Assembly (NCBI GenBank): GCA_964016885.1
Contig: OZ024742.1
Span: forward strand, 226,734,001-226,798,000
DNA: 64,000 bases
Reading direction: 5' to 3'
Source: Eledone cirrhosa
Lineage: Eukaryota
The position numbers and the translations under genes are program-made. The notes under the pieces are model-generated. The model ran no database searches and was not told the DNA's origin. It saw only the letters and a list, made by a program, of their open reading frames with translations. Shown piece after piece: positions 2,005 to 64,000 of this stretch. Each line of letters begins with the position of its first letter. Position 1 is the first letter of the stretch.

Positions 2005-2042
2005 GCAATTGATAATGCATTTAATGCTGAAACCGGTATTGT
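2005..2042 (+). ncRNA. Minimal type I hammerhead ribozyme, U3-A8 core variant, in 3' UTR of the Neptune-like PLE
   Basis: gcaa UUGAUAA u gcauu u aaugc u GAAA CCGG UA uugu. Palindromic stem III ACCGGU, GUA site. Confidence 0.7.
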
Positions 2043-4499
2043 AAATAAATTAATGCTTTCAAATTTCACTAAAAGTATCTCTTCAACATTTTCTACAGAA
2101 AAAAACTTTTTCCATTCTACTATTTGTTTATATATATATATATATATATATATAGTTTTATGTAATTCACTATATAATTTATTGGTTATTTTTTGTTTAT
2201 AACTGCTAGTAGAAAGCTTTCTTTGGGACTGAAAATTTCTTTGTTCACATCTTGAATTTATCCGCCTAGAGTTGTGGCGAGAGGTCGAAAGCTGTTATAT
2301 GACCACCATTATTGCTTTGATCATGCTTACTCTAGATGAAGATTCATATCATAAAGTCTGAATAAAAGACATGATAGTCAGAACTAGAACGCCGTTGATT
2401 ATAGGGCTGTTGGATCAACGCTAGGCTGGGATTAAACAATAACAATGATATTATTTGTCAAAGCGCTACAGGACTGGCTTAGTCGCCACCTGCTGCCAAT
2501 GTCACGAATCCAACCGGCAATGCCTTCTCTACTCTCTGCTACCCTATCAACATATCCAGCTCAAAAGATGTTGCAGGCATTAACAGAAATACAAAGAACT
2601 GTGGATGTGGAAAGGTTTTATGGGACCACCATGCCTACTTCGAAGAAACGACCAAGGTGAAGAAGAAAATCTTTATTGATTTCTTAGATTTTATTGGTTA
2701 CAAAAAATATTTTAAAACAGTCTTCGATTACTATCAACGAATTAAATGAGAATCCGTTAACAACACAAAGGCTATGAATCTAATTACAAAACATGGCGTC
2801 ATCGTGTTGATTATAATTTCAGTAAGCTCAATCAATGAATTAATTGAAACTGATCTTAATAATTATCGTAAAAAAAAAAGAATTAAATATAATTGTTTAT
2901 TTACACAATAACAATAACAAAGAAACATTTTTTCTAAAAAAAATTGACAAAAGGCTTTCTTTTTTAAAATTATCGATAATTATGTATTTTTTCTCCATTC
3001 ATGATACGTTTATCTGGGAGTATAGGACTGATAATGATTCTTAACGTTTCCTTCTTTCACTATTCGCCACTCACATTAATGCGATTATCTCGATCACTGT
3101 GTAATGACTTAGTGAAGCGTTAATTAAGAATGATATTAAAACGAGGAAGACAATTTAAAAGCTAAACACTTCATTTATGATATATAATAGACTTTGTATA
3201 TCATATGTTACATGTATCTAGTTTAGAATAAGCGAACGGTATCGCGGTATGTCATAAGAGGCGACTAAAAGGGTTGGTGCAGGGAAGGGCATCCGACCGC
3301 AAAACATTGCTTCAAGATGGGCACTATGATGTGTATAAAGTTTGTCACTAGACCGGAAGGCTAACCTTTTCATTAGTTGGGGCTGGGACGGGGGAATGGC
3401 TTTAAAACGCTTGTTGATGTCTATGTAACACAATCAGATGAATTATTTTACGTACTGTTACGGCGTGTTTGGGGCATTTTAAACCTGACGGAACACATCT
3501 TTCCATGTCTGACCAGAGCTGATTTCTTCCAGAGAGAGTGGGGGGAAGAAGAAGAAGAAGAAGAAGAAGAAGAAGAAGAAGAAGAAGAAGGATGGGGAAG
3601 GGGGATGGGGAGGATGATGAGGAGGAGGAGGAGGAGGAAAGAGACCGCAGTTAAACAAGATACCCAATGCATTAAGTAGAGAGGGCACGCAATTTATTTA
3701 AGATGGAAATGACTTCTGCAAGGCGAGAATCAACATTCAACTCGTAGATTAATTATTGACCCCGAAGGAATGAAATAACAGAGATCGAGAACGAATACCG
3801 CAACACACCGAGTCTGACAATTAGCTGCCATGTAAAAAATAATAGTAATAAATAAATTTACCTTCTATATCGATAGACAAAATTTAAAGTCAGATATATT
3901 CCTGTAGGGTCACAAAAAAACTCAAACGAACCCGATTTTCTTTTAATTTTTATTTTAATCGTTGTTGAACAACAAAACAAATCACCAGGCACAAAATTTT
4001 CGAAGCCTCAATACTCAAGTATTTACGTGATGTAATACAATCAATAATGGAAATATATTTTTAACATGTACACACGACTTCAGCATCTGTATTTCGATGG
4101 AATCAACTTCAACTTCACTGTTGTTTAATTTATTCACTGCTCCGTAAGGTTGTAAAATAAAGTTAAGTTCACCTCAATGAAATCTTTCTTCTTCCTTTTT
4201 CTTCTTGTCAAGTGGAGGTCTTGCAACTCACCACAGAACGACACTTCCAATGGTACAATCGGAAAAATAACGCATATATATGTTAACACATTAACACATA
4301 CACACACACTACCCCCCCCCCATATATATATTTATATGTATTTCAGACCTGCCAACCTCTAAAGACCCAAACAGGAAGTACCATGAAATAAAGTGCCCCC
4401 AAACGGCGAAAATGAGGCACAATAGGGAGATTTTACATAATGAAAGCTATACCCATTTTCACAAGAGCTCTTACGTAGTTGGGAGATCTCCCCGTCGGG

Positions 4500-4560
4500 A
4501 GAAATAGCCGGCGAAACGGCTTGAGCTCTGCCATCGGGGTCTTGAACATTTTTCTATTAT
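4500..4560 (+). mobile_element. Tail-less 3' fragment of Naiad family D pLTR (3' half of hammerhead) ending in (TA)n
   Basis: agaaatagccggcgaaacggcttgagctctgccatcgggg matches 24696-24750. Confidence 0.75.
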
Positions 4561-4699
4561 ATATATATATATATATATATATATTCCCAACATCGAGAGT
4601 CGGGGACCATAGGCAAAACGATCATTTTATATATGCAAATCATGCTGATCAGTCATTGTATATTTGAGAAAATAGCATATATTTTCATTAGCTCTGACA

Positions 4700-4782
4700 G
4701 TTGGCAGGTAAACAGTATACTGCACTGATGAAGGGTAATCCCCCAGAAACTTTAGTGTCTGCAGTTCTGTTTACATGCCAAC
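4700..4782 (+). ncRNA. Type I hammerhead ribozyme with extended stem I
   Basis: CUGAUGA 4725-4731, stem II ggg/ccc, GAAA 4746-4749, GUC 4757-4759. Stem I gttggca-g-gtaaacag-tat-actgca / tgcagt-t-ctgtttac-a-tgccaac. Confidence 0.88.
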
Positions 4783-4880
4783 ACAAGACCAAGAATGACG
4801 AGGTAGTTCTACTGACATGGCTTCAAAGAGGCGGTTTGCATAATTACAAACGAATTGAATATTATATTATAATAAAAATA

Positions 4881-5088
4881 ATAATGGTTTCTTATATAGG
4901 CACAAGGCCAGCAATTTTAGGGGAGGGGAAAGTCGATTAAATCGACCCCGGTGTGAGACTGGTACTTTATTTTATCGACCCCGTAAGGATGAAAGGCAAA
5001 TAGAACCTCAGCGGGATTTGAACTCAGATCATAAAGGGCCGTAACTCTATGCTGCAAAGCATGTTGTCCGACCCTCTACCGACACTGT
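4881..5088 (-). mobile_element. tRNA-derived SINE (MetaSINE-like central domain)
   Basis: B box gagttcaaatcc on minus strand. Core gcctttcatccttacggggtcgataaaataaagtaccagt is shared by more than 10 copies in the window. Confidence 0.85.
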
Positions 5089-5215
5089 TCGAAAAACTCA
5101 GATTACATTTATTATATTCAGCCATGTAGAGCGATAAACCATTTGTTTTATATATATATATATATATATATATAAAAGAAATAGGATTTCGCTTCAAGCA
5201 TAGCTTTATACAATT

Positions 5216-61796: not shown

Positions 61797-61893
61797 AGAC
61801 GTATCTGAGGACCTTGCGATTTCAGAGTCAGGTTCGATCATTGCATCGATCGTACCTCGAGCTGGTCGCCAGAGAAACGGTTGTAATATGTCT
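61797..61893 (+). ncRNA. Type I hammerhead ribozyme with ~60-nt stem II
   Basis: agacguau CUGAGGA ... GAAA CGGUUG UA auaugucu. Stem-loop at 61943-61967; (TA)n at ~62015. Confidence 0.85.
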
Positions 61894-62233
61894 AATAAAT
61901 TTTATTCGTCGCAACACTGATTCTCCGTTTCTTATGTGATATACTCTGCTCTGTAAGAGCATCGAGTGCTCAAAAGGCCTACCGCTTACGGACGCTTTAA
62001 GCATCCCACACCAATTATATATATATATACAAACAAACCGAGCATTATAATAAATGTTCAGTAAACCGATACGTGCATATATATATGTGTGCATGTGTGT
62101 ATATATATACATACTACTGTACGTCGGTATACATATATGTATGTACGTATACATACATGCATACTTACATTTAGGTAAGTGCCGTGAAATTTCGTTTCAT
62201 TCTATTCCATATATATATATATATATATATATA

Positions 62234-62395
62234 TGAAAAAAGAAAAAGAATGACTTCACTTATAGTTCTAAACAATTTGATTTAATTTTATAATATTATA
62301 ATATTATAAAATTAAATCAAATAGTTTAGAACTACAAGTGAGGTCATTCTTTTCCCTTTTTCAAATATACCTATATCGAGGATTTCACACATTTA
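62234..62395. repeat. AT-rich palindrome 62234-62363 + short tail between (TA)n tracts
   Basis: Centre at 62298/62299. Confidence 0.8.
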
Positions 62396-62524
62396 TATAT
62401 ATAGTGTAAGTAGTACGATGAAATAATGATGTTGGTGCCAAATCATATAGACGAAACTTACTTGTTTTTTCTATTATATATATATATATATATATATATA
62501 TATATATATATATATATATATATA

Positions 62525-63237
62525 TACTTAGGGTAAATATTGATGCAATTCAATTCAAGCACTCAACGTACTTATTCCACATAGGAGTGACGGAGTAAAT
62601 ATCGAATAAAGAAAAGCGAAGTACTTTCAGATGTTAAGTCTTTTAATAATAATTGTTTCTACGTTAGGCACAAGGCCAGCAAATACTCAGTGTATTACTG
62701 GTACTTTATTTTATCGACCCCGTAAGGATGAAAGGCAAAGTTAACTTCGGCGGGATTTGAACTCAGAATGGCAAGGGCCGTAACTCTATGCGCCAAAGCA
62801 TGGCATTTAATAATAATGCTGTGATATATATTTCAATGACGACAGTGGCCACACTGTTCTGTGTGCCATGTCGATTCAATTTGGATTGCCTCGGAAACAT
62901 AACCTTATTATGTAACAAGCTGTCTGACGATGTCGCGACACTGGCACACAGAACAGTGTGGCCACTGTCGTCATTGAAATATATATCACAGCATTATTAT
63001 TGTGGATTGGCAGTATCGGTAGAGGGTCAGACGCCATGCTTTGCAAGCAAAGAGTTACGACCCTTTATTGTTTGAGTTCAAATCCCGCCGAGGTTAACTT
63101 TGCATTTCGTCCTTATGGGGTCGATAAAATAAAGTACCAGTAATACACTGGGAAATTGCTGGCCTTGTGCCAAAAGTAGAAACAATTATTATTAAAAGAC
63201 TTGAACATCTGAAACTACTTCGCTTTTCCTTATTCTA
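62525..63237. mobile_element. Fold-back PLE end with a SINE in each arm (62645-62806 -, 63001-63193 +)
   Basis: Outer and inner arms are inverted. Stem-loop on minus at 62561-62596. Confidence 0.82.
62919..62992 (+). ncRNA. Type I hammerhead ribozyme
   Basis: gcugu CUGACGA ..gcgaca.uggc acac...gugu.gcca.ugucgu.. GAAA UAUAUA UC acagc. Confidence 0.88.
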
Positions 63238-63409
63238 TATATATATATATATATATATATATATATATATATATATATATATATATATATATATGTATAT
63301 ATATATATATATATATATATATATATATATAGAGAGAGAGAGAGAGAGAGAGAGGCTCTGATACCATCAACACTATAAACACAGAGCTGGCATATCTAAG
63401 AACTGACTA

Positions 63410-63465
63410 ACTGCCTGATGAGGTCATAGCCATTCAATGGCTATCATCGAAATATATATAGCAGT
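63410..63465 (+). ncRNA. Type I hammerhead ribozyme, same family as 31932
   Basis: acugc CUGAUGA gg uc auagcca uucaa uggcuau ca uc GAAA UAUAUA UA gcagu. C-G to U-A covariation in stem II. Confidence 0.9.
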
Positions 63466-64000
63466 AAATAAAGGATTATGAGTTCATGCAATTGACTTAT
63501 GTTTCGTCAATATATATATATATATATATATATATATATATATATATTAAGTGTATTGAGTTCAAATCTCAAGCATTCCTTTACAATGAAAATAGCTCAA
63601 AGAAAAGAATATTTCTGCGCCGTGTAATAAATATAAATTAATATAAATTAATATATATGATGAAACACAAATACCAACATATCTGTGTTTATATTGCAAA
63701 AGGAATTAAGTTAGCTAGAATGAAATATACTAATTATAATATTACAGCCTGCCTATATCGATTCAAAATAATAAATCAACACAAACAAACAGTATTGGCA
63801 AATGGCCATGGTGTTTAGACAAATTTAAATTTCAAAATCAAACCTGTTCCGTAGATAAGTTTAAACTTTAAAATCCAAATATGTTTCGAGATAAATAAGT
63901 GTAAGGATATCTTGTCCAGCTCTCTTTAGTAAACACCCAGAACAAATTGATATGCTTCACTTCATTACACGGCTCAGAAATATTCTTTTCTTTGAGCTAT

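Follow-up and report, generated by a model that had tools for sequence, protein, structure and literature searches.

Penelope-like elements (PLEs) are the sister group of telomerase, and the choice of their RNA, their inverted copies and the tail at one end are open questions. In telomerase, a bound stem sets template use at a fixed distance. The stem considered here differs from the RNA anchor stems of telomerase RT in lying 3' of the start point, where we propose that it marks initiation rather than a stop.

The closest described elements belong to the Hydra clade (Craig et al. 2021, PMC8557442), one family of which has already been described from an octopus. Their proteins resemble those encoded here in the C-terminal GIY-YIG, DKT, an RWK-like motif, the CxCx5C linker, CxxC and CxH, and their insertions in the type I hammerhead, (TA)n targets, inverted copies and one-sided tail, the last two being called undefined features in that paper; tails measure 30-40 nt there and 71-166 nt here. 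The Naiad clade shares the (TA)n preference, tails and inversions, but is set apart by an N-terminal endonuclease, the lack of canonical hammerheads (PMC8557442) and DKA, none of which holds here. Poseidon PAc of Anolis (Frangieh et al. 2024, PMC11167929) is alike in its two internal RT start sites, which bound the tail, in the cutting and extension of both target strands, in its AT-rich targets and in a predicted dimer. It belongs to another clade, however, its start sites fall within the ORF, in an AC-rich stem loop, and the main text describes neither a duplicated conserved motif nor a rule for inverted ends. Metazoan non-LTR retrozymes (Cervera and de la Pena 2020, PMC7229834; Li et al. 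2026) likewise consist of tandem units that lack an ORF and contain one type I hammerhead apiece, and are thought to be PLE-mobilised and related to pLTRs (PMC7229834; 10.64898/2026.07.22.740005). A 2020 review states that no conserved motif in them points to their partner (PMC7761336), whereas the two ORF-less units described below do carry one.

Our literature searches turned up no description of a duplicated hairpin motif; the main text of PMC8557442 contains neither 'hairpin' nor 'stem-loop', and the motif is visible, unremarked, in its consensus file. A motif of about 20 nt whose two copies predict both ends offers a direct experimental handle, a sequence tag for linking ORF-less retrozymes with their partner clade, and a means of annotating element boundaries in invertebrate genomes with hundreds of thousands of such ends.

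The hammerhead, hairpin and microsatellite layout

The window is a 64,000-nt stretch of Eledone cirrhosa DNA. Its relevant features are given below; two kinds of end occur, tail-less ones stopping a few bases before hairpin 1 and tailed ones before hairpin 2.

15373..15423, +: type I hammerhead of family A with a canonical core; cleavage predicted after 15417
15445..15463, +: hairpin 1 of family A, followed by a tail up to 15506 and by (TA)n
12899..14736, -: family A Hydra-type RT-EN ORF, 5'-truncated, frameshifted, inverted against the pLTR
9297..9725, both strands: inverted pair of family B; the - copy (hammerhead 9403-9333) is tail-less, the + copy (hammerhead 9529-9599, hairpin 9642-9666) tailed
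25443..25726, +: family B tailed end (hammerhead 25532-25602, hairpin 25645-25669)
26754..26914, +: family C tailed end, position-4 variant hammerhead, long hairpin 26831-26876
6762-6980 (inverted pair), 33300-33449, 33520-33587(-), 58369-58435: other family C ends
23462..24019, +: Hydra-type ORF of family D, C-terminal portion with GIY-YIG
24642..24828, +: family D end, decayed U3-A8 hammerhead, hairpin, tail
4500-4557 (tail-less), 35557-35758 (inverted pair), 44555-44732: other family D ends
31932..32133, +: family E end (hammerhead 31932-31986, hairpin 32043-32082)
63410-63509: hammerhead related to family E, without hairpin
35860..36294, both strands: inverted pair of family F; the - copy (hammerhead 36056-35989, hairpin 35940-35921) is tailed, the + copy (36188-36294) tail-less
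35300-35498: family F relative
56336..56506, -: family G end, position-4 variant hammerhead (56506-56468), hairpin 56419-56387
57104-57191, +: family G tail-less partner
61797..62015, +: family H tailed end (hammerhead 61797-61893, hairpin 61943-61967)
62561..62596, -: family I hairpin, tail to 62527
11059..11079, +: family O hairpin, tail to 11118
55253-55276, 55799-55824, 56011-56034, +: three more hairpin-plus-tail ends, two of them D-like
42514..43575, -: tandem unit of family K, 531 nt long and without an ORF; hammerheads 43296-43214 and 42765-42683, hairpin 1 at 43153-43130 and 42622-42599, hairpin 2 at 43037-43016
43348-43575, +: family K inverted copy
2005..2128, +: Neptune-type PLE end, U3-A8 hammerhead, no hairpin; internal negative control

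A preliminary description had named nine sites at which a hammerhead is followed by a bulged stem-loop and then a microsatellite. This order was recovered at eight of them (9529, 15373, 25532, 26754, 31932, 35988(-), 56468(-) and 61797), with 27-61 nt from cleavage site to hairpin and 38-61 nt from hairpin to microsatellite, close to the ranges first reported. At the ninth, 24642, the hairpin is present (24757-24780) and our descriptor makes no ribozyme call in this copy; a U3-A8 core variant was called in 8 of 20 related loci. Cores are canonical in families A, B, E, F, H and K and variant in C, D and G, the hammerheads at 26754 and 56468 being position-4 variants. Family ends adjoin TA tracts.

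The layout exceeds chance. Against 30 shuffles of the window that kept microsatellites in place, we counted 17 strict hammerheads (control mean 0.5, maximum 2), 17 hairpins with a microsatellite 20-90 nt downstream (0.23) and six full strict modules (0). As the hairpin descriptor was built from the window itself, the independent test is that of 87 other 10-kb stretches, which held 90 hammerheads versus 6.9 in the control, 62 hairpin-microsatellite combinations versus 2.6 and eight modules versus 0. The reverse order occurred neither in the window nor in these stretches, in keeping with the fixed arrangement that had been claimed. The large genomic load anticipated earlier was also borne out: extrapolation from the window and the 87 stretches gives about 290,000 strict hammerheads, and one hairpin pattern matched 111,066 times versus 3,888 in the control.

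The suggested Rfam check returned no hammerhead family among the best 150 of 240 matches (E<=10); all of these were miRNA models driven by microsatellites and scoring below the gathering threshold. On energy alone single hammerheads mostly fold no better than shuffles (z +0.64 to -2.68); the minimum free energy fold of family A hammerhead 15373 shows the three stems. A hammerhead motif is no proof of cleavage, since only one of nine predicted frog retrozymes cleaved (Li et al. 2026, 10.64898/2026.07.22.740005). No hairpin accompanies the hammerheads at 2005, 4719 and 62919, and motif 14439, antisense within an ORF, is probably a chance match.

Hydra-type coding families

Of the roughly ten separate families proposed at the outset, dissimilarity outside the motifs was upheld, but 9529 and 25532 proved to be one family (87% alike). 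That the islands are PLE ends in (TA)n held, as families A, B, C, D, F and H continue into a PLE ORF; the same read-through contradicts the view that the families are mostly non-coding, with only K shown to be ORF-less in the window. On sequence evidence, the islands are mostly truncated 3' ends of Hydra-type PLEs and of ORF-less derivatives.

Assignment of the module to the 3' end of a Naiad GIY-YIG ORF named the wrong clade: RT precedes the endonuclease, and DKT and CxCx5C are Hydra-defining. In families A and D a single ORF encodes the RT and then a C-terminal GIY-YIG endonuclease (catalytic RT motif 347/348, GIY-like motif 602/606). Both proteins contain SDKT, RWR, the CxCx5C linker, and CxxC and CxH around the conserved E and N. 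Among 111 aligned relatives DK[TS] is present in all and RW[KR] in 105, and CxCx5C, CxxC and CxH in 108, 111 and 108, respectively. The endonuclease is not N-terminal, DKA is absent and, unlike in Naiads, canonical hammerheads precede the ORFs of A, B and F. The Pfam GIY-YIG match was weak for family A (E 0.0026) and absent for the family D fragment. Hydra-clade endonucleases lack a CCHH finger; by eye, one Cys is seen in the endonuclease core of D and four other families, and a second Cys in A. In a tree with the metagenome set, five ORF proteins of this genome group together on a single branch with good support. No relative of solved structure was found by sequence, and TERT structures rank highest among the fold matches to the predicted protein.

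The family A ORF at 12899..14736 is 97% identical to the 713-aa family A protein and likely derives from one insertion together with 14940-15506. The same family A pLTR lies upstream of the ORF in L083, L085 and L088. Because the 3' region of many family A ORF copies continues into a long simple repeat, we draw the link between module and ORF at the 5' side. The family D part at 23462..24019 is 85% identical to the 719-aa family D protein, whose unit spans 3.5 kb. Family H reads through into an ORF at L420, and a Hydra-type endonuclease lies upstream of the family E end in four loci.

A duplicated hairpin and two fixed ends

The hairpin (consensus RCUC-stem-UU-GAGY, about 20 nt) occurs twice in the 5' UTR, so that complete copies read hammerhead, hairpin 1, hairpin 2, start codon, RT-EN ORF. 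Read-through copies of families B, C, D, F, H and one further family carry both hairpins before the ORF, 78-106 nt apart; family B genome copies were retrieved by pattern search. In family A the second hairpin, at 71 nt, is divergent and off consensus, yet tailed ends are frequent. Covariation across 20 hairpins yielded 46 doubly changed cells versus 16.6 +/- 4.3. The second hairpin and the two fixed ends had been missed by the preliminary description.

The module is not common to all hammerhead families, as had been thought, although a shared cis-acting architecture of PLE ends stands: the hairpin is absent from Neptune-type and several unassigned hammerhead families and is therefore not a general PLE feature. 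By eye, one of six published Hydra consensi lacks the motif and two have partial motifs only. Metagenome Hydra-type loci are 24-49% identical to those of this genome in the RT region, and two hairpin motifs were found in all 14 with an upstream hammerhead (complete 5' regions), reduced to 7 of these 14 by a strict inner-stem test. All 34 metagenome loci divide into 20 with two motifs, 8 with one and 6 with none (controls: antisense 1/34, shuffles 0.43), and, of 10 informative 3' ends, 7 terminate 2-4 nt short of a motif.

In this genome, 355 of 370 3' ends abutting a microsatellite fall in the interval from -12 to +2 relative to the first base of either hairpin, one lies between the hairpins and 14 lie elsewhere. 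Junctions show short TA microhomology, which blurs Blast end points. Inverted pairs combine one end of each kind: 87 of 92 were mixed, two tailed-tailed, none tail-less on both sides and three unclassified. At loci chosen without regard to the tail, 36 of 38 pairs were mixed (two unclassified), and unpaired ends split 46 versus 44.

Both hairpins are also kept in two units without an ORF, family K (period 531 nt; spacings 523-533 among the genome matches listed) and a unit of 592 nt at L075. Each is arranged head to tail with a type I hammerhead per unit, the longest Met ORFs are 66 and 75 aa, and tblastn against four PLE proteins gave best E values of only 0.69 and 0.28, respectively. By their sequence features these units look like retrozymes.

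Proposed copying start and alternative readings

We consider it moderately likely that the bulged hairpin, present twice per element, acts as an RNA signal that binds the element's RT and sets the start of copying, with both target strands primed. Two protein molecules would bind a transcript, tandem or circularised, one at each hairpin. The (TA)n target would be nicked on both strands, and each 3' end would pair over 1-5 TA bases at a site about 6 nt upstream of a hairpin, from which it would prime reverse transcription. The two cDNAs would then be joined head to head, leaving the junction-side hairpin uncopied, and the 'tail' would be the stretch between the two start sites. Internal initiation at two hairpins would thus explain the one-sided PLE tail, and the ORF-less units, since they keep both hairpins, may be mobilised in trans. 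Slightly short of an even chance goes to the fuller proposal, in which two telomerase-like RTs sit on one RNA through a duplicated clade-wide element, each priming one strand of a (TA)n break. Such programmed twin-priming would give the inverted copy and one-sided tail, and the portable signal would make a non-coding circle a PLE substrate.

The same fixed junctions would be predicted if the hairpins were instead DNA signals, near which the GIY-YIG endonuclease cuts a longer cDNA or extrachromosomal intermediate a few bases away, the ends being joined to (TA)n. The tail has been ascribed to endonuclease-mediated resolution (PMC8557442), and a passage in PMC11167929 cites the D. virilis Penelope tail as needed for recognition of DNA by the endonuclease, which counts against the RNA-signal reading. 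Folding energy shows no preference for the sense strand (better in 22 of 60), and in 3 of 60 hairpins the outer pair is A-C, which could pair only on the opposite strand. We nevertheless regard a DNA signal as unlikely: the inner helix has 10 G-U versus 2 A-C, favouring the sense strand, the TA microhomology fits primer annealing, and both tail ends of Poseidon are RT start sites in vitro, where both target strands are extended (PMC11167929).

Still less probable is a role in translation or stability of the uncapped, ribozyme-cut RNA, with junctions adjoining the hairpins only through unpaired TA-rich stretches. The ribozyme cut would place both hairpins at the RNA 5' end, and in seven metagenome loci 15-51 nt separate the end of hairpin 2 from the start codon. 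The ORF-less units keep both hairpins all the same, just one of the 370 ends falls between them despite AT-rich tails, and the one-of-each rule in inversions would go unexplained.

The original picture of about ten largely independent, mostly non-coding RNA families with a convergent architecture, moved by a Naiad element, draws on their dissimilarity outside the motifs, the ORF-less K, and G, I, J and O lying outside the ORF-linked set, but is very improbable and largely refuted by the six families that run into Hydra-type ORFs, the single branch formed by five such proteins, and the C-terminal endonuclease with DKT.

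Layout and abundance of the module

The preliminary description proposed that about ten mobile RNA families of the window share a type I hammerhead followed by a bulged hairpin, a tail and a microsatellite; families are denoted by letters below. Using descriptors for a type I hammerhead and for the bulged hairpin, we recovered this layout at eight of the nine sites it had named; at window position 24642 the hairpin was present and the ribozyme was found as a decayed variant only. The window, which is dense with dinucleotide tracts, contained 17 strict hammerheads versus 0.5 in 30 shuffles that kept microsatellites in place. 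The reversed order of parts was found 0 times, both here and in 87 other stretches of 10 kb each, sampled from large contigs of the 3.0 Gb genome (1,796 contigs) at round coordinates. These stretches held 90 hammerheads (6.9 in shuffles), 62 hairpins with a microsatellite 20–90 nt downstream (2.6 shuffled) and 8 strict modules (0 shuffled), the last count being low because truncation leaves many copies short of the ribozyme or of the hairpin. Hammerhead density in the window is ∼2.6 times that of the sampled stretches, and extrapolation yields ∼290,000 hammerheads, in line with the large genome-wide load that had been anticipated. Genome-wide, a single exact hairpin pattern gave 111,066 matches versus 3,888 for its reversed control; patterns for families B, C and E matched 17,711, 21,865 and 10,968 times, respectively.

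Hairpin structure and the host elements

The hairpin consensus consists of RCUC, a variable stem-loop, a 2-nt bulge and GAGY. In 20 hairpins of this genome 89.9% of cells were paired, and 46 cells had changed on both sides versus 16.6 ± 4.3, a test on favourable ground since the structure came from the same 20 sequences. When 77 Hydra-type loci from metagenomes were searched with a model built from them, 81 hits had E≤10, most of them in UTRs and on the sense strand; their alignment, itself fitted to this model, showed 88 double changes versus 27.5.

The suggestion that the families are ends of Penelope-like elements (PLEs) or their non-coding derivatives was borne out in part. Read-through copies connect families A, B, C, D, F and H to a Hydra-type ORF, families E and M have a Hydra-type GIY-YIG endonuclease (EN) upstream of the module, and family K is an ORF-less tandem unit of 531 nt; for G, I, J and O no link to an ORF was established. 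A second ORF-less tandem unit (592 nt) is located outside the window. Intact ORFs of 713 aa (A) and 719 aa (D, within a tandem array of period 3,542–3,543 bp) encode proteins with RT before EN and with RWR, SDKT, CxCx5C, CxxC and CxH motifs, the Hydra-clade signature as set out in section 11 of PMC8557442. The best fold match of a confidently predicted protein structure (pLDDT 93) was TERT. In a tree, five Hydra-type proteins of this genome formed one branch against 14 metagenome relatives, from which we infer that the module is common by descent.

Read-through copies of six families carry a second hairpin (hairpin 2) just beyond the tail end, 78–106 nt from the first (hairpin 1); that of family A is divergent, at 71 nt. 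Both are kept in the ORF-less units, 116 nt apart in K and 166 nt apart in the 592-nt unit. A stretch of ≥60 nt ahead of the ORF was available in 36 of the 77 metagenome loci, and 34 of these were kept once two near-duplicates had been removed. Two motifs were present in 20 of the 34, one in 8 and none in 6, versus 1/34 on the antisense strand and 0.43 in shuffles. All 14 loci reaching the upstream hammerhead had two motifs, or 7/14 under a stricter inner-stem rule. Judged by eye in the six published Hydra consensi inspected, the motif was clear in three (coral Hydra-2_Amil, sea cucumber Hydra-2_Ajap and Hydra-1_Ajap), partial in two and absent in one; the Hydra-1_Ajap consensus opens with two copies, 61 nt apart.

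Hairpins and insertion ends

Inside families the ribozyme-to-microsatellite distance is bimodal. Among 370 distinct microsatellite-abutting ends from seven families, 149 fell within −12 to +2 of hairpin 1 (tail-less ends) and 206 within the same range of hairpin 2 (tailed ends), with 1 between the hairpins and 14 elsewhere. The most frequent junction windows run from about −9 to +1 and share 1–5 TA bases with the target; the commonest letters in metagenome hairpins are T at −6 (25/42) and A at −5 (26/42). Both copies are present on 22 metagenome contigs, of which 7 read through and 5 stop at the contig edge; 7 of the remaining 10 end 2–4 nt ahead of a motif. The 5′ side of some ORF-bearing copies starts directly at hairpin 1 or 2 (sampled loci L420:170-205 and L205). 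Past the family A ORF (L031–L060), a long TG/TA simple-repeat stretch follows a half copy of the hairpin 3′ arm.

Head-to-head pairs combined a tail-less with a tailed end in 87 of 92 cases. Because A and H loci in this set had been picked with a tailed query, the count was redone on loci picked by ribozyme pattern or fixed coordinates. Here 36 of 38 pairs were mixed, 2 had an unclassified end and 0 were matched (binomial P=1.5e-11 for 36/36), while unpaired ends in this set divided 46 versus 44.

The junction-side hairpin is missing from the inserted DNA and must therefore act on the template or a longer intermediate. In the account of the Poseidon element in PMC11167929, initiation is internal, at two sites, with both strands extended, and ribozyme cleavage is dispensable in vitro. 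By analogy, the simplest reading is that the hairpins position RT on RNA, with one priming event for each hairpin and each target strand. The main rival holds that the hairpin is an endonuclease signal on DNA. The excess of G-U over A-C (10 to 2) leans towards the sense strand; folding energy showed no such lean. The template must connect the ribozyme with the downstream hairpins, and would thus be either a tandem transcript left uncleaved or a circle formed by religation.

The clade, ribozyme and tail are already known; a duplicated cis-element strictly tied to both insertion ends is apparently undescribed. We found no description of the motif in the literature searched, which took in text from Craig et al. 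2021, Li et al. 2026, PMC7761336, PMC4209133 and PMC7229834 and from Frangieh et al. 2024, whose supplementary figures may show a similar motif, but not most subscription papers or Repbase notes.

Hammerheads lacking the hairpin and other repeats

Window features outside the Hydra-type families
672–2128 (+): Neptune-type PLE 3′ fragment, with a U3-A8 hammerhead at its end and no hairpin
11419–12163 (+): second Neptune-type PLE 3′ fragment
16917–19185 (−): LINE fragments encoding RT and apurinic endonuclease domains
54182–54529 (−): Pif1 helicase 2B-domain fragment

Hammerheads with U3-A8 cores can be active. Of 30 loci of the Neptune-type element (957–2128), all 4 with a ribozyme called lacked the hairpin, and none was found after the ribozyme in five further hammerhead clusters. 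For a third PLE endonuclease type (40932–41459(+)), no hammerhead of its own was called in 30 loci; in most of these a microsatellite comes within ∼30–50 nt past the ORF. Hammerhead-like motifs with neither hairpin nor assigned element occur at 4719–4765, 62919–62992 and 26069. Two sampled loci (L091, period ∼311; L247, period ∼467) carry further short tandem units that contain a hammerhead but no hairpin and are possibly retrozymes of another PLE clade. An abundant ∼190-nt repeat, SINE-like by size, is found at 4880–5087 and in >10 other places, and long near-perfect inverted repeats flanked by TA tracts, unassigned to any family, occupy 44827–45190 and 31504–31823.
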